Positions 1,977 to 29,431 of a DNA stretch of 44,260 bases are shown here, one piece after another. A model generated the notes under the pieces. The model worked only from the letters and a program-made list of their open reading frames with translations. It was not told the origin of the DNA and did not search any database. The position numbers were made by a program, and so were the translations under genes. The stretch is taken from NCBI GenBank assembly GCA_022574495.1, contig JACZRW010000003.1:1-44260 (forward strand), given 5' to 3'. The DNA comes from Patescibacteria group bacterium (lineage in GTDB: Bacteria; Patescibacteriota; Microgenomatia; Woykebacterales; RBG-16-39-9b). How positions within the stretch are numbered: the stretch's first letter is position 1; every line of letters begins with the position of its first letter.

Positions 1977-2939
1977 ATGCTAGAAGGTAAAAAATGGTTG
2001 TCAGAAATTAGGAAATTAAGATTGGTTCCATTTATGATGATTTTAATAATAGCATTTGGTTTTTTGTTGGCAGTTTTGGTTTTAATACTGTTATTCGCGT
2101 TTACTCCAGCCGATAGACAGGTATTATTATCCAGACCGAAAAACCTGACTTTTGATGGGTTAGAGAGAACTTACCGAATACATGATCCTAAAACTAGTGG
2201 AAAGAAATCATTAATTATTGGGCTTCATGCTCTAGGAGGAAGTGGTAGACGTTTTTCCTACTTCACTGGACTTCATAATGTCGTGGGCGAAAATACAATC
2301 GTAGTCTATCCTGACGCCGTTTTATCAAATAAGAAGGGTTTAAAAGCAGGTTGGAACTCAACATATTGCTGCGGAACTGGACTTGAGAATAATATTGATG
2401 ATGCGGGGTTCATTTTGGCTCTTATAGAGAGGATTACTCAGGATTATGATATAGACCAGTCAAAAATTTTTATCACCGGATTTTCTAATGGTGCCACAAT
2501 GTCTCAATATCTAGCGACTGAGTATCCGAAAAAATTTGCTGGAATAGCTGCTATATCTGGATCAGTAGGCGTCGAAAAAAAGGTATTAAAACCTTCGAGC
2601 GCAGTTCCAATACTGCTCGCTCACGGCATGAGAGATGAGAGTATTCCATTCAAGGGTGGCCTCTCTGGTGATGATGGCTTCTTTAATTGGTTAGATTTCA
2701 CTACCACCGTAAATACTTGGAGAGATGTAAACGGTTGTAACCAAGAAACTAAGATCATAGAAAAATCTAAAACTCGTGAGATTATCGACTACGAGGGCTG
2801 TGATTCATTAGTTCGTAGCGTTATTTATCCAAACTTAGGCCATCAATGGGACGACTGGCGCGTTGGCCAGTTTTGGCGTAGAACACCAAGAGGTTCGAAA
2901 TTAGTAGTCTCGTTTTTCGAAAACGTTTCTAATAATTAG
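1977..2939 (+). CDS. Membrane-anchored PHB-depolymerase/LpqC-like alpha/beta hydrolase (true start may be about 2034)
   Basis: N-terminal TM segment, oxyanion LHALGG, WN..YCCG, IDD.GFI, nucleophile GFSNG, HG..D..IP, GHQW. Confidence 0.85.
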   Translation: MLEGKKWLSEIRKLRLVPFMMILIIAFGFLLAVLVLILLFAFTPADRQVLLSRPKNLTFDGLERTYRIHDPKTSGKKSLIIGLHALGGSGRRFSYFTGLHNVVGENTIVVYPDAVLSNKKGLKAGWNSTYCCGTGLENNIDDAGFILALIERITQDYDIDQSKIFITGFSNGATMSQYLATEYPKKFAGIAAISGSVGVEKKVLKPSSAVPILLAHGMRDESIPFKGGLSGDDGFFNWLDFTTTVNTWRDVNGCNQETKIIEKSKTREIIDYEGCDSLVRSVIYPNLGHQWDDWRVGQFWRRTPRGSKLVVSFFENVSNN

Positions 2940-3050
2940 GTGGGTAAATTATTCCTGCTTGAGTAACTTTTACTTGTTTACAAATATCTTTGAATCGATG
3001 AACCACTACTTGGTCTTATTAGGAATTAGAAAATCTTACTTAGTTTGAAC

Positions 3051-3574: not shown

Positions 3575-4102
3575 ATGTCTGCTCAATCAAGGGTTAATCA
3601 GTATCCCCCACAACCTCAACAACAAGTAGGACAACCTCGAAATCCAGTTTCTCCACCAAGTCAAGTTACGGGAGGTAAAAAAAATGGGTCTCCTATCTTT
3701 TCAATAGTAGGTGTTGTGGTGGTGACAATTGTTTTATTTTTTGGTGGGTTATTTTATCTTCAATACTTACAAAACCAAAACATCGAGGATAGTGGGAAAA
3801 TGGAAGAGGAAAATAAGGAAAAAGAGGAACTCCAGCTTAAGCAATTAGAGGAAAATGTAAAGAATGATCAGATAAGGAAGTTGGATATAACTTCAATAAA
3901 GGGTGGGCTCTCAGAATACTTTGAGAAAAATAAATTGTACCCAGAAAAATTAGAGGTTTTAACACCGGATTATTTGACCGTAATACCCTTAGATCCAGTA
4001 TCAAAAGTGCCCTACTTTTACGAACCAAACGAAGATTTTACAAAATATGAGCTCTCCGCCAAATTAAGCGACGATGGTAATTTCACTGTACAAAGTAACT
4101 AA
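3575..4102 (+). CDS. Membrane-anchored pilin/GspG-like protein
   Basis: TM helix followed by D..RK.DI..I...L..YF.....YP..L..L...YL..IP.DP....Y.Y, typical of pseudopilin globular domains. Confidence 0.65.
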   Translation: MSAQSRVNQYPPQPQQQVGQPRNPVSPPSQVTGGKKNGSPIFSIVGVVVVTIVLFFGGLFYLQYLQNQNIEDSGKMEEENKEKEELQLKQLEENVKNDQIRKLDITSIKGGLSEYFEKNKLYPEKLEVLTPDYLTVIPLDPVSKVPYFYEPNEDFTKYELSAKLSDDGNFTVQSN

Positions 4103-4555
4103 CTACCCCCAAAGGTTGTACGGTTTATAGGCGAGGCTTACATTCCAATATTTTTTGTCAGTGGTGACTTCTTTTGAAATCCACAGTGGTCTTTGAAATT
4201 CTTCGTTCAATCTTTTTAGCTCTATTTCAGCAATTATTAAACCTTTGTTAGCCCCTTCAAAAACGTCAATTTCCCAAACATTACCGTTCACTTTTATATT
4301 GTATCTAGTTTTTTCAATTTGGTTACTACACCTATAAATCATGCTTTTCGCATCAGCAATAGGAATAGAAATATCGTACTCAATGTTTAGACCCCCTTCT
4401 CTGAATTTTATAGTTAGGTAGCCCTTTTTGTTTTTAATTCTAGCCCGAACAACAGGGTCAGTGGATAAATAGGCTTGAACTATTTTCTGTCCTCTCTTTA
4501 GTCTTGGAAGTCTATCTGGAAAGACCAGATATTTTCTCTCAATTTCCTTCTTCAT
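4103..4555 (-). CDS. CYTH-domain protein (triphosphate tunnel metalloenzyme)
   Basis: EIERKY, VRARI, LTIK, IEKTRY, WEIDVF and AEIE motifs. Confidence 0.92.
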   Translation of the reverse strand: MKKEIERKYLVFPDRLPRLKRGQKIVQAYLSTDPVVRARIKNKKGYLTIKFREGGLNIEYDISIPIADAKSMIYRCSNQIEKTRYNIKVNGNVWEIDVFEGANKGLIIAEIELKRLNEEFQRPLWISKEVTTDKKYWNVSLAYKPYNLWG

Positions 4556-17734: not shown

Positions 17735-17810
17735 TGGTGAGCCAGGAAGGACTCGAACCTTCAACCTATTGCTTAAGAGGCAATTGCTCTGCCGATTGAG
17801 CTACTGGCCC
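17735..17810 (-). tRNA. tRNA-Lys(CTT)
   Basis: 76-nt cloverleaf, anticodon arm ATTGC-CT-CTT-AA-GCAAT, GTTCGAG T-loop, encoded CCA. Confidence 0.96.
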
Positions 17811-17813
17811 ACG

Positions 17814-17889
17814 TGGCGCCCCAGGAGGGATTCGAACCCCCGACCTTGACGTTAGAACCGTCCTGCTCTATCCGCTGAGCTACTGGGGC
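17814..17889 (-). tRNA. tRNA-Arg(TCT)
   Basis: 76-nt cloverleaf, anticodon loop GT-TCT-AA, GTTCGAA T-loop, encoded CCA. Confidence 0.93.
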
Positions 17890-23820: not shown

Positions 23821-26654
23821 TTATTACTAGTTAAGTATTTTAACTCTCTTTTTAGATATTCGCCGGTGTACGATCTTTTCGATTTTATAATTGTTTCGGG
23901 ATCCCCTTGGGCGACTACCATCCCACCAGCATCTCCACCATCTGGACCAAGATCGATTATCCAATCGGCTGTTTTAATTACATCAAAATTATGTTCTATC
24001 ACCACTACGGTATTACCCAAATCTACCAGTCGATGAAGAACAGACAATAGGTTTTCGATATCGGCAAAATGAAGACCAGTTGTTGGCTCATCCAGTATAT
24101 AAAAAGTCTTTCCCGTACTTTTACGCGAGAGTTCTGTGGCTAATTTAACCCTCTGTGCTTCTCCACCCGACAAAGTTGTTGCTGGTTGGCCCAAACGTAT
24201 ATACGAAAGGCCAACATCTCTAAGAGTTTGAAGTTTATTTTTTATGGCTGGTACATTATTAAAAAATTCCAGCGCTTCCTCAACAGTCATTGCTAAGATT
24301 TCAGAAATATTTTTGCCTTTAAAACTTATCTCTAAGGCTTCTCTGTTATACCTTTTACCTTCACAGGTTTCACAGGTAACGTAGACGTCTGGTAGAAATT
24401 GCATCTCAATTTTAATAACGCCATCACCTTGACAAGTTTCACATCTACCTCCCTTAACGTTAAATGAAAACCTACCCGCTCTATAGCCTCTTATTTTAGC
24501 TTCGGCTGTCTGTGCGTATAATTCTCGAACATAAGAAAAGGCGCCAGTGTAAGTAGCTGGATTACTTCTTGGTGTTCTACCAATTGGTGATTGATCTATA
24601 CTTACTACTTTATCAATAAATTCAATACCCAAAATACTTTTGTGCTTTCCAACTTTCTCCTTTGAACGGTAAAGACTTGCACTCAAGGACTTTCTCAGGA
24701 TATCTTCAATTAGAGTGGATTTGCCAGAACCAGAAACACCGGTAATACAAATAAACTTCCCTAAAGGAAAATCTACATTAATATTTTTAAGATTGTGTTC
24801 TGAGGCCTCAATGATTTTTAGTGATTTGCCGTTTCCTCTTACCTTTTTTTTATAATCTTTCATTACTATTTTTTTACCCGAAAGAAATTGCCCCGTTATG
24901 GATTCCTTTGATCTAGTTATTTCTTTTGGTGTCCCGTAAGCAATTATCTCTCCCCCATGTTCCCCAGCACCAGGACCAGTATCGAGCACCCAATCTGCAC
25001 TTTCAATAGTTTCTCGATCGTGTTCGACCACGACAACCGTATTTCCTAAATCACGGAGATTTTTTAGGGTGTTAATTAATCTGGTATTATCTTTTTGGTG
25101 AAGACCTATGGACGGCTCATCTAAAACGTAAAGGACTCCAGAAAGCCCAGAGCCAATTTGTGAGGCTAAGCGGATTCTTTGAGCCTCCCCACCAGCAAGA
25201 GTAGCGCTAGTTCTCCCTAATGTAAGGTAGTTCAAACCTACATCTACTAAGAATTTTAACCTGGTCTTTATTTCTTTTAGTACTTGCTTGGCGATTATCT
25301 TTTCTCTTTCGGTCAAGTCAAGAGATGCAAACCACTCTTTGGCTTTATCTATTGAATAATCACTCACTTCGGTAATTGGTTTCTTATTGATTGTTATAAA
25401 TTGCGATTCCTTCTTTAATCTAGAACCCTTACAAGTCTCACAAATTTCTTCTCTCATATATTTCTCAATTTCCCTCTTGGTCCATTCACTATCCGTTTCT
25501 TTGTATTTACGTAAAATCTCTGGCATTACTCCTTCAAAAGTGGTGTTAAAAGTTATTAATTTTCCAAACCTATTTCTCCCTGAGACTTTAAATACTTCTT
25601 CCTCAGAACCGTAAAGAACAGTGGTTAAAGCATTTTTTGGTAAATCCTTGATTGGTGTGCTTAAAGAAACTTTCAAATGATCCACTAGAGCATCTAACCT
25701 TCTTGAAGACCAAGTATCCGATCCTAATATCCTACTCCAAGGTAATATTGCACCTTCGGAAATCGAAAGACTTTTATTTGGTATTACTAAATTCTCATCC
25801 ACACTGAGTTTTGTGCCTATCCCAGTACACTCCGGGCAAGCACCGTATGGAGAATTGAATGAAAATGTTCTAGGTTCTATTTCGGGTAGGGATACATTAT
25901 GCTCAGGGCAAGAAAATTGTTCAGAGAATAATTGATCCTTCCCATCTATTGATGCGATTACGACTCCTTCTGATAACTTCAAAGAGGTCTCTACAGATTC
26001 GGTGAGTCTTTGTTTGTCTACCGGAGTTACTAGTCTATCAATCACCACTTCAATATCGTGAATTTTATATCTAACCAGTTTTGGAGTTTCTCCTATTTCG
26101 TAGACCTTTCCATCCACTCGTACCCGTACGTACCCTTTTTTCTTTAAATCCTGAAAAACTTCATCATAAATTCCTTTTCTACCCCTCACAATCGGGGAAA
26201 GGATAAGAAGTTTTTTATTTTTTGGGAATTTTTGTATTTTATCGACTATTTCTTGAGGGGTTTGGGCTTTTATTTCTTTTCCATCTACCGGACAGTGTGG
26301 TGTTCCTACTCTTGCCCAAAGCAGTCTCATATAATCATAAATCTCAGTGATAGTGCCTACAGTAGAGCGCGGGTTTTTTGGAGCAGATTTTTGATCTATA
26401 GATATGGCTGGGGAAAGACCTTCTATCTGATCTACATCTGGTTTTTCCATCAGGCCTAGAAATTGTCTGGCGTAGGCAGAAAGGGATTCTACATAGCGCC
26501 TCTGCCCCTCAGCATAGAGTGTATCGAAGGCCAAAGAGGATTTACCCGAACCGGAAATACCAGTGATAACCACTAATTTATTTTTAGGGATTTCTACGGA
26601 AATATTTTTGAGGTTGTGCTCTCTAGCACCAACAATGGAAATCTTATCATTCAT
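23817..26654 (-). CDS. uvrA: Excinuclease ABC subunit A
   Basis: GAREHNLKN, two ABC cassettes, Zn fingers. Start reassigned to ATG 26654 after TTGAAT-17-TATAAT. Confidence 0.97.
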
Positions 26655-26716
26655 AGATCGGAAATTATACGCGATTTTGCAAATTAATTCAAGTGCTAGA
26701 GACCAATACTTTATAC

Positions 26717-26746
26717 TTGACAATGGCTATGGGGCTGAATTAAAAT
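26717..26746 (+). promoter_or_regulatory. Sigma70-type promoter divergent from uvrA
   Basis: TTGACA-18 nt-TAAAAT pointing into the 600-nt region. Confidence 0.6.
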
Positions 26747-26751
26747 ACACT

Positions 26752-27355
26752 AGTTGATTGGTGTCACCCAATTCGTGTAGTTTGGAGAGGTGTTCACGGT
26801 AGAGGGTGCCATACCAGCGATGCGTTGCGAACCTTCCAACTAGCAGTTCATGTTGTGTTGCTAGACCTGGTTTCGGGTAGCCAGTCGCTGGTAAAAACCC
26901 TCTCAAAACTGAATTCAACAGTTGTTCCTGGCCTACGGATGCGAGTAGGGCTTGGGAAACTTGTAATTGGACTGGGATCTATCTTTACTAAGAGTCCTCA
27001 AGCGCACCATTGAGGGCTCACAAACTTACCGGTCATCGCTGCCTAGCAGCGGGAAACTGGGGTGGGTGTGTCTTCAGACCCTCGGGTCAGTGGACGGAAT
27101 GGCACAACATGACCCTCTACGCCTTCCAAGGAGTACGGTCGGTTCAACCTTCCGATAAATACCCCACCTAAAAACAGATTCACACCGCCAGTCTGGATCA
27201 GGGTGTAGACCTGGACGGTTGGTGATGAAGTATGGCGGACCAACTAAGTGCTGCTTCATTATTCTGCCATAGCCTTCTAGTACGTCTTTTCGTCTAACGT
27301 CTGACGTCTCATGTCGGCCGACTAAAGCCCTGGTGAAACACCACACCAGGGCCTC
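26752..27355 (+). ncRNA. Candidate large structured ncRNA of about 600 nt, unassigned
   Basis: GC-rich, no convincing ORF, own promoter and terminator, more than 12 helices with several long-range pseudoknot pairings. Confidence 0.7.
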
Positions 27356-27363
27356 TCTTTTTT
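27327..27363 (+). terminator. Rho-independent terminator
   Basis: GCCCTGGTG-8 nt-CACCAGGGC followed by CTCTCTTTTTT. Confidence 0.75.
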
Positions 27364-29431
27364 AAGACAACTTTCCTGTTTCTCTTGCAGTAACTGTTTT
27401 GGGGATGTGCAAGTTTTTATTCTTTAATTCCAACATCTGATCACGCAGGAGAGCGGCGCTTTCAAAATCTAGATTTTCGGCTGCATGTTTCATTTCTTCT
27501 TCAAGATCTTTGGCGAGTTTTTTAATTTCTTTCTTTGGTACTTTGGTAAGATCAAGCTCCTCCACCGTACTTGCATCAGGTTGAATTTCTTCCAGCCTTT
27601 CACCAATATCATGAATCGCTTTTTTAATAGTTTCTGGAGTTATTTTGTGCTTTTTATTATAAACAAGCTGGATATTTCGACGACGGTTTGTTTCTTCTAT
27701 TGCTCCTCTCATAGAACCAGTTATCTTATCGGCATACATTATCACCTTTCCATCCACGTGACGAGCCGCTCTACCTGTAGTCTGAATAAGACTTGTTTTG
27801 GATCTTAAAAATCCTTCTTTATCAGCATCTAGTATAACCACCAGGGAAACTTCTGGCAGATCTAACCCTTCGCGCAGCAAATTTATTCCCACCAAAACAT
27901 CGAATTTTCCTTTTCGTAGATCGCGCAGAATATCTATTCTTTCCAAGGTATTTATCTCATGGTGGATATACATTACTTTTATTTCTCTTTCTGCTAGAAA
28001 TTCCGCTAAATCTTCCGCCATATTTTTTGTGAGCGTAGTGACCAATACCCGCTGTCCTTTAGAGACGCGATTTTTAATTTCTTCCATGAGGTCGGGGATT
28101 TGGCCTTTGGTTTTTCTAATTTCAACTTCGGGATCGATAATACCAGTGGGCCGGATGATTTGCTCCACTATTTGATCCGCAAGACTCAACTCATAATCCT
28201 GTGGTGTGGCGGAAGTATAGATTACTTGATTAAGTTTTCTGGAAAATTCTTCATAGTTCAACGGTCTATTATCAAGTGCACTAGGCAATCTAAATCCATT
28301 ATCAATCAATACACTTTTTCTGGCTTTTTCCCCGTGCCACATACCACGAATTTGAGGAACGGTCATGTGTGATTCATCAATAAAGAGTAAAAAGTCTCTT
28401 GGAAAATAATCCATTAGTGTAAATGGGGAATCCCCTGGAGCACGACCATCAAAATATCTTGAATAATTTTCTATTCCTTTTACAAAGCCAAATTGATCTA
28501 TCTGTTCAATATCAAAATTTGTCCTTTGCTCCAATCTTCTATACTCCACTACTTTGTCATTATTTTTGAAGTAAGCCAGTCTATCCTTTAAATCTTTTTT
28601 TATTTGGGTAAGTGGTGCTTGAAGATTTTCTTTTGGCATTACGTAATGACGAGCCGGGAAAATCATGGTTTCCTCTTGCTCTTCAATATTTTCAAAACTG
28701 GTCGGTTTTAACCTGTCTATTTTTTCAATAGAATCACCAAAAAAACTTACCCGAACAATAAATTGCTCATAAGAAGGGTAAATCTCTAAGGTATCACCCT
28801 TCACTCTAAAATTCCCCCTTTTCAGTTCAAGATCATTTCTTTCGTACTGAATATCTACTAATCCGCTTAAGACTTCTTTTAGCTGAATTTTTTGACCCTT
28901 GTACAGACTGATTACACTATTTTGATAGGAATCAGGAGATCCTATATTGTAGATACACGATACGGAAGCAACTATAAGTACATCCCTGCGTGTAAGTAAG
29001 GCTTTGGTTGCCGCTAGTCTTAATCTGTCAATTTCTTCGTTTATGGCAGCATCTTTTTCTATATAAAGATCTATCTGAGGAATGTATGATTCTGGCAGGT
29101 AATAATCGTAATAACTTACAAAATATTCCACTGCATTTTTGGGGAAGAATTCGCGAAATTCGCTGGCAAGCTGAGCCGCCAAAGTCTTATTGTGAGCGAT
29201 TACCAATGTTGGCTTTTGGGTTTGTTGAATGATGTTGGCCATAGAGAAAGTCTTACCCGTAGCAGTGGCCCCAAGTAAAACTTGGTGTTTGTAATTTTTC
29301 TTAATACCATCTACTAGTTTTTTTATTGCTTCCGGTTGATCGCCAGTCGGCTCAAATGGTTTCACCAATTCAAAGCTTTGGCCTTGCTTAGTTTTAATCC
29401 TGAACTTTGTTGAAGGATCAGATTTATCCAT
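27362..29431 (-). CDS. uvrB: Excinuclease ABC subunit B
   Basis: PTGDQP.AI, GATATGKT, YFVSYYDYY, DESH, NLLREGLD, C-terminal UVR domain. Confidence 0.97.
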   Translation of the reverse strand: MDKSDPSTKFRIKTKQGQSFELVKPFEPTGDQPEAIKKLVDGIKKNYKHQVLLGATATGKTFSMANIIQQTQKPTLVIAHNKTLAAQLASEFREFFPKNAVEYFVSYYDYYLPESYIPQIDLYIEKDAAINEEIDRLRLAATKALLTRRDVLIVASVSCIYNIGSPDSYQNSVISLYKGQKIQLKEVLSGLVDIQYERNDLELKRGNFRVKGDTLEIYPSYEQFIVRVSFFGDSIEKIDRLKPTSFENIEEQEETMIFPARHYVMPKENLQAPLTQIKKDLKDRLAYFKNNDKVVEYRRLEQRTNFDIEQIDQFGFVKGIENYSRYFDGRAPGDSPFTLMDYFPRDFLLFIDESHMTVPQIRGMWHGEKARKSVLIDNGFRLPSALDNRPLNYEEFSRKLNQVIYTSATPQDYELSLADQIVEQIIRPTGIIDPEVEIRKTKGQIPDLMEEIKNRVSKGQRVLVTTLTKNMAEDLAEFLAEREIKVMYIHHEINTLERIDILRDLRKGKFDVLVGINLLREGLDLPEVSLVVILDADKEGFLRSKTSLIQTTGRAARHVDGKVIMYADKITGSMRGAIEETNRRRNIQLVYNKKHKITPETIKKAIHDIGERLEEIQPDASTVEELDLTKVPKKEIKKLAKDLEEEMKHAAENLDFESAALLRDQMLELKNKNLHIPKTVTARETGKLS

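Follow-up and report, generated by a model that had tools for sequence, protein, structure and literature searches.

A predicted structured non-coding RNA gene in the variable region between uvrB and uvrA of a Patescibacteria group bacterium

The window, that is, the whole stretch of DNA that was analysed (44,260 nucleotides), is contig C58 of a 67-contig assembly of a Patescibacteria group bacterium with 935,484 bases (0.94 Mb), 38.7% GC and an estimated completeness of 94%. The uvrB and uvrA genes of this contig are separated by a gap of about 710 bases (26655-27364) without a credible reading frame. The GC content of the gap is about 50% vs about 37% in the flanks, and in 200-nt windows it ranged from 0.465 to 0.55 in the gap and from about 0.33 to 0.45 in the flanking genes. 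The features of the locus are listed in Table 1. Elsewhere in the window, two tRNA genes are located side by side on the minus strand (17738-17889).

Table 1. Genes, predicted signals and predicted RNA elements at the uvrB-uvrA locus, and the MarR-like gene of related loci
Feature	Position	Strand	Details
uvrA	start 26654	-	968 aa as listed
uvrA promoter-like site	26664-26692	-	TTGAAT-17-TATAAT, 10/12 to consensus
RNA-gene promoter-like site	26717-26746	+	TTGACA-18-TAAAAT, 11/12 to consensus; sigma-70-like
Inferred transcription start	~26752-26754	+	from promoter-like site
Predicted non-coding RNA	26752-27362	+	~610 nt; no ORF/Pfam match, GC ~0.5, fold z, helix excess
5' strand of candidate long-range helix	26799-26807	+	pairs with 27112-27120; perfect inverted repeat
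Conserved hairpin module	26812-26893	+	common to host RNA and L033; ~85 nt
Module P1	26812-26821 with 26884-26893	+	paired
Module P2	26824-26827 with 26878-26881	+	paired
Module invariant strands	26819-26834 (16 nt), 26878-26888 (11 nt)	+	host vs L033
Module apical hairpin	26840-26864	+	variable
Domain closed by GGGGUGGG/CCCCACC	27059-27169	+	includes hairpin loop UUCAACCUU; MFE and centroid folds, one sequence
18-nt strand	27103-27120	+	complementary to 26848-26857 (module apical loop) and 26799-26807
Candidate pseudoknot region	27225-27271	+	27225-27232 with 27252-27259; 27231-27239 with 27263-27271; complementary strings
Intrinsic terminator	27327-27362	+	9-bp stem 27327-27352 (7 G-C pairs), 8-nt loop, then CTCTCTTTTTT T run
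uvrB	stop codon 27362-27364	-	689 aa
MarR-like gene (relatives)	L007:578-862; matching stretch of L010; L144:1173-1550	+ (L007); - (L144)	3-base rhythm, Pfam

The longest start-to-stop ORFs in the gap encode 62-63 aa on the plus strand and 90 aa on the minus strand (table 11), and with the alternative code of table 25 no frame exceeded 111 aa from stop to stop and none was convincing. Both the ORF lists and the Pfam search, as well as a comparison of ORFs with those in the uvrB-uvrA interval of other genomes (hereafter the slot), indicated that 26752-27362 is non-coding, which agrees with the first-pass annotation, where a GC-rich region without a credible ORF had been described with the same coordinates and sequence. 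Small proteins or peptides, encoded for instance by a 15-codon ATG frame at 27226-27273 or by the 90-aa frame on the minus strand, are a highly unlikely explanation of the region. Short frames exist, and a GC-rich small protein gene is present in the slots of three relatives (L007, L010 and L018), but none of six gap ORFs matched Pfam at E ≤ 1, no gap ORF of at least 50 aa recurred in another slot locus, no suitably spaced ribosome-binding site was evident in the sequence, and the sole conserved block, described below, carries a 22-nt indel and paired changes.

A promoter-like site and a terminator-like hairpin on the plus strand, both proposed in the first-pass annotation, were recovered at the two ends of the region by consensus match. 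The promoter-like sites of the RNA gene and of uvrA stand back to back, as expected from the proposed divergent promoter region, and the terminator adjoins the uvrB stop codon. If these signals are used as predicted, transcription would start from a sigma-70-type promoter at about 26752 and proceed away from uvrA, and the terminator would halt it head-on against the end of uvrB. Promoter sites of at least 11/12 numbered 107 genome-wide vs 46-61 in five block shuffles (about 51), so that such a match by itself has about an even chance of being real. Four related loci (L006, L009, L016 and L033) have a site of at least 10/12 in the corresponding position, 63-97 nt into the gap, which raises the odds of a real promoter.

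Between the two hexamers of the uvrA promoter-like site lies an 8-bp palindrome, TTTGCAAA (26676-26683), which may be an operator. The word GCAAATT, related to this palindrome, is present at the uvrA side in seven of 13 slot loci.

Folding analysis of the predicted RNA gave -223.1 kcal/mol for the plus strand, with a modest z of -2.84 from 20 shuffles, none of which folded as well, and -200.1 kcal/mol (z -1.80) for the minus strand. In 150-nt sliding windows (60 shuffles per window), the mean z on the plus strand was -1.73 inside the RNA (seven windows) vs +0.22 in the coding flanks (27 windows), and on the minus strand -0.90 vs -0.14. Four perfect inverted repeats of 9-10 nt (26812/26885, 26799/27112, 26848/27103 and the terminator) were found, whereas 500 dinucleotide shuffles contained a mean of 0.59 repeats of at least 9 nt and only one of them reached four.

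The predicted fold is multi-domain and branched, with a length of 611 nt. The local helices listed in the first-pass annotation (CTAGCA/TGCTAG, GAGTCCTCAA/TTGAGGGCTC, CGCTGC/GCAGCG and the GGGGTGGG/CCCCACC closure) exist in the sequence and are also formed in the MFE fold, and the single strand said to be complementary to two distant segments is real, with a length of 18 nt. One of these segments, GUAGAGGGU at 26799-26807, also has a local partner, ACCCUCU at about 26894-26900, just 3' of the conserved module, which is preferred by the MFE fold; either the local or the long-range pairing may form. L033, the one relative with the module, does not have the loop needed for the 26848/27103 pairing, and the 27103-27120 strand is not conserved there. 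The stems of the candidate pseudoknot compete with a nested 13-bp alternative, which the MFE fold picks, and a proposed pairing of a 5' AGTTG with CAACT had to be dropped, since at 5 bp it is too short for any meaning. Just 3' of the module, 18 nt at 26899-26916 perfectly complement the sense strand in the middle of a 467-aa ORF located on a different contig (C37:10004-10021), a match of borderline chance significance (blastn E 0.04).

Rfam 15, which covers OLE, ROOL, GOLLD, HEARO, group I and II introns and riboswitches, was searched with the gathering score as the criterion of membership, and nothing in the whole window reached that score except two tRNAs. At E ≤ 10 the single match in 26600-27450 was to a snoRNA model, with 14.9 bits vs a cut-off of 45 and E 9.2, which is meaningless. 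This search, which the first-pass annotation had suggested, places the RNA in no known family, and the suggestion that the region is not a group I or II intron, tmRNA or RNase P RNA was borne out by the same result and by the detection of RNase P RNA and tmRNA on other contigs. RNase P RNA (RF00010), of which a genome has one copy, was rejected as a candidate because the genome's copy sits at C47:2892-3272 (101 bits), and tmRNA (RF00023) because its copy sits at C19:13357-13718 (112.7 bits) and ARAGORN found none at the uvrA-uvrB locus. SRP RNA (RF00169, RF01854) and 6S RNA (RF00013) were also rejected; neither had a match in the genome, and a genome scan for SRP-like motifs with a consensus found nothing plausible.

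The host and 16 other genomes of the family appear to lack the signal recognition particle pathway. SRP RNA (RF00169) was found in none of 17 family genomes including the host (control: 12 of 14 genomes), and the SRP54 M domain (PF02978) likewise in none of the 17 (control: 14 of 14). The SRP54/FtsY GTPase domain (PF00448) was missing in all four family genomes searched, three of them rated 100% complete and one a single contig, and present in all 14 control genomes. A literature listing contained nothing on loss of the SRP pathway in this family.

A known housekeeping RNA (RNase P, tmRNA, SRP RNA, 6S or intron) that has become too divergent for its model is largely refuted as an explanation and scarcely credible. 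It would fit the lack of a detected SRP RNA or 6S RNA in the genome, but RNase P RNA and tmRNA score above their cut-offs elsewhere, and an SRP RNA is not to be expected in a genome that also lacks the SRP proteins. Furthermore, the multi-domain fold is not a 6S-like rod, no sub-threshold Rfam match was obtained, and the slot loci have no conserved motif in common. 6S RNA is about 180-200 nt long, poorly conserved in primary sequence, and rod-like with a central bubble. Like 6S RNA, the predicted RNA has the type of gene that goes with an abundant RNA, with a strong putative promoter, but it is about three times too long and its predicted fold is branched instead of rod-like.

Sequence searches with the RNA as query found no relative: blastn matched none of 40 related genomes, including none of the 16 family genomes. 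The same search with RNase P RNA matched all 16 family genomes at 70-87% identity, and the RNA is thus not under comparable constraint. The C-terminal part of UvrB of the host is 77-78% identical to that of L004 and L005, which lies within the range (75-79%) where L007, L010 and L018 still have an alignable gene in common; the missing similarity of the RNA therefore exceeds ordinary divergence. The stretch is single-copy in the genome, no terminal repeats were seen and phages, plasmids and viral contigs contained no match; a repeat or mobile element was rejected as an explanation.

Unlike the sequence, the locus is widely shared. In loci anchored on UvrB, the order uvrB-gap-uvrA was found in 11 of 16 family genomes, with gaps of 383 to about 2030 nt that are mostly non-coding. 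The gap was richer in GC than its own locus in 10 of these 11 genomes (in L014, in the core only). The other five family genomes comprise one with an 84-nt gap (L015), three with other genes after uvrB and one whose contig ends too soon. In several slot gaps, promoter-like and terminator-like sites follow one another two or three times. Of the two strands, the one directed away from uvrA gave the more stable fold in all 13 loci compared (the host's own, the 11 relatives and L033). Per 100 nt, it was favoured by 2.5-9.7 kcal in eight loci and by a small margin of about 1-2 kcal in L005, L007, L009, L010 and L018.

None of 12 related slot loci matched Rfam at E ≤ 10, no 6S-like rods were seen among the shorter slot RNAs, and in a search for a motif common to all slot loci only promoter, uvrA-side and terminator words recurred. 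In the second, GC-rich slot unit of L008, just before the terminator, the hexamer GCGTCT is repeated in tandem in about five copies. ARAGORN called a tRNA-Pro(tgg) at L009:2778-2853 on the minus strand, within the second GC-rich unit of that slot; the call had no Rfam tRNA match even at E ≤ 10, and its anticodon loop looks unusual.

About 330 nt common to L007, L010 and L018, three of the five loci with a small strand margin, were considered as a conserved RNA, which was ruled out by a 3-base rhythm of conservation and a Pfam match to MarR/winged-helix proteins. The slot beside uvrA in these three relatives thus holds a GC-rich gene for a MarR/winged-helix protein of 95-125 aa, and "GC-rich and ORF-poor" overstates these three gaps. 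The gene would be driven from the promoter position that serves the RNA in the host. In tblastn searches, the three MarR-like proteins had no match in the host gap at E ≤ 10 and none genome-wide at E ≤ 0.01.

A metagenome scan with the UvrB C-terminus returned 80 loci, of which the sole close one was L033 (1338 nt, 70% identity over 110 aa); the others had different synteny or came from unrelated bacteria. L033 is laid out as the host locus, with the start of uvrA, a TTGACA-17-TAAAAT site and about 430 GC-rich bases. Its RNA and the host RNA do not align except in the hairpin module of about 85 nt, which has a fold z of -3.1 in the host and -4.3 in L033. All 14 pairs of the module are kept in both sequences (28 of 28 cells paired, none broken), and two of them carry compensatory changes at both positions, from U-A to G-C and from A-U to G-C. 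In slid controls only 11-54% of cells paired; the comparison covers two sequences and 14 pairs, and a shuffle control (133 of 500) was uninformative. The two modules differ by a 22-nt indel in the apical part, and therefore have no reading frame in common. A reading frame conserved among homologues, which the first-pass annotation had named as evidence against an RNA, was thus not seen in the one homologous block.

The module was not found further afield. A covariance model of it recovered only the genome's own copy among 60 relatives, and an 18-mer of the module with up to two mismatches gave two matches in 400 genomes of the class vs five for the reversed control, that is, chance. The module pattern matched genome contigs three times, about the chance expectation, in each case in apparent coding DNA of unrelated bacteria. 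A 13-base match to a module strand at C42:29260, in a plausible 112-aa coding frame, was also taken as chance.

The stretch was present in 15 public sequencing runs from seven studies of marine sediment. None of these runs is on record as RNA, and two METATRANSCRIPTOMIC WGA libraries among them are probably DNA. The allele was recovered as near-identical contig pieces in all four runs examined (three studies), which consist of assembled contigs, so that stretches without contig cover carry no weight. One contig of 2692 nt from run X2 matched the uvrA side (26514-26710) at 91-96% and the uvrB side (27390-28100) at 97.9%, and in it 810 different letters replace the 679 between 26710 and 27390. 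This single contig is a hint of allelic replacement.

Contigs of runs X1 and X4 join 26843 to 27046, skipping 202 nt between two copies of CTAGCAG. The shorter side of this joint has only 25 letters, and the joint may represent either a deletion variant or an artefact.

The stretch might also be DNA with no function or a selfish one, either GC-rich DNA taken up recently from a foreign source or the remains of it, in an intergenic spot prone to recombination, with promoter- and terminator-like strings that are fortuitous or left over. This explanation is unlikely, but it carries some weight, as the GC content lies about 12 points above that of the host, family-wide conservation is missing while RNase P RNA is conserved, the stretch is exchanged in a near-identical contig, a GC-rich MarR-like gene is found in the slot of three relatives, which would suit an acquired island, and about half of the 11/12 promoter matches are due to chance. 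However, reduced genomes of 0.94 Mb seldom retain a useless 0.4-2 kb at one place in 11 of 16 relatives. The enrichment of helices, the preference for the plus strand in all 13 loci, the compensatory changes in the module (two sequences) and the promoter at a matching position in several loci also argue against foreign or selfish DNA, as do the single copy without terminal repeats, the lack of phage, plasmid or viral-contig matches and the lack of any remnant of a MarR-like gene.

An action in cis, for which the sequence need not be conserved, would explain the hypervariability. Strong convergent transcription and a folded, GC-rich spacer could insulate uvrA from read-through of uvrB, or the RNA could be antisense to a uvrB-uvrA read-through transcript; consistent with this, the minus strand provides no T-run terminator for uvrB, the hairpin abuts the uvrB stop codon, and uvrA has its own promoter beside that of the RNA. 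We regard such an action as improbable, because L015 manages with an 84-nt gap, insulation requires neither 600 nt, high GC nor enriched helices, and the sequence of the module is conserved between two loci.

The best explanation in our assessment, at about even odds as judged from sequence features, is that the element is a stand-alone gene for a GC-rich, heavily base-paired predicted non-coding RNA of about 610 nt that is transcribed on its own. The undescribed RNA gene proposed in the first-pass annotation held up in part: the region is non-coding, GC-rich and base-paired, has its own putative signals and belongs to no Rfam family, but the idea of an ornate conserved class like OLE, ROOL or GOLLD did not survive the searches of relatives with blastn and with the module, nor the Rfam search. 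OLE, ROOL and GOLLD are large bacterial non-coding RNAs in the class of about 600 nt, represented in Rfam, whose functions are unknown or have lately been emerging. The predicted RNA resembles them in its size of about 600 nt, its stand-alone gene, a GC content above that of the host, its many helices and its lack of coding capacity. In contrast, these RNAs are conserved over many genera with cores supported by covariation, and in the predicted RNA only one 85-nt module recurs.

The most economical reading of the element is that it is one of a set of fast-turnover RNA genes at a fixed locus. In most genomes of the family, the slot contains one to three GC-rich, mostly non-coding stretches with almost wholly lineage-specific sequences, which in several loci are bounded by a promoter-like and a terminator-like site. 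The host RNA would be a stable, trans-acting molecule that makes specific contacts via a few small conserved elements, chiefly the 85-nt module with its invariant internal-loop strands, and the module may be the contact site for a partner, either a protein or another RNA. The scaffold that carries these elements would change fast or be exchanged by recombination. The molecule may be closed by pairing of a 5' GGAGAGG with a 3' CCUCUCU that follows the terminator stem. The position beside uvrA weakly suggests a link of the RNA to DNA damage.

A bolder version, which we consider rather doubtful, is that the uvrB-uvrA gap of this family is a dedicated cassette slot for strain-specific structured RNAs, where each lineage has its own promoter-to-terminator RNA of 0.25-1 kb, modules such as the 85-nt hairpin pass from one lineage to another, and entire alleles are swapped by recombination between near-identical strains. 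Cassette-like turnover of this kind is familiar from protein loci under selection for conflict or specificity. If true, a cassette slot would point to an RNA-based system for identity, defence or host interaction in episymbiotic bacteria.

Bacteria with genomes below 1 Mb shed most non-essential DNA, and this family still keeps 0.4-2 kb of GC-rich and largely non-coding DNA, apparently RNA genes, in a slot whose place is fixed while its sequence is almost wholly different from one genus to the next and perhaps from strain to strain. Should the RNAs be expressed, they represent a class that is missed by design in discovery pipelines based on covariation, since conservation lies in the locus and not in the sequence; the fast turnover would then suggest a role in conflict or in partner specificity, not in housekeeping. 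Without expression, the locus serves as a warning that GC-rich, helix-rich, promoter-flanked DNA is insufficient to call an RNA gene.

Searches of AT-rich bacterial genomes for long intergenic regions of high GC are reported to yield orphan RNA candidates (PMC6429828, PMC8632094, PMC11109978). The predicted RNA is like such candidates in that it occupies a long ORF-free interval of high GC in a genome rich in AT, but differs in that the locus, not the sequence, is conserved across the family and that a near-identical contig carries a different insert. The literature listings and abstract openings contained nothing on an RNA at uvrA-uvrB or on large non-coding RNAs of Patescibacteria.

Three further GC-rich, ORF-free stretches without an Rfam match were observed in the same genome, at C29 ~2440-3035 (L126), C10:885-1118 (L127) and C30 ~3988-4420 (L125). 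The stretch on C30 has a perfect TTGACA-17-TATAAT promoter, with a strong terminator about 390 nt downstream.
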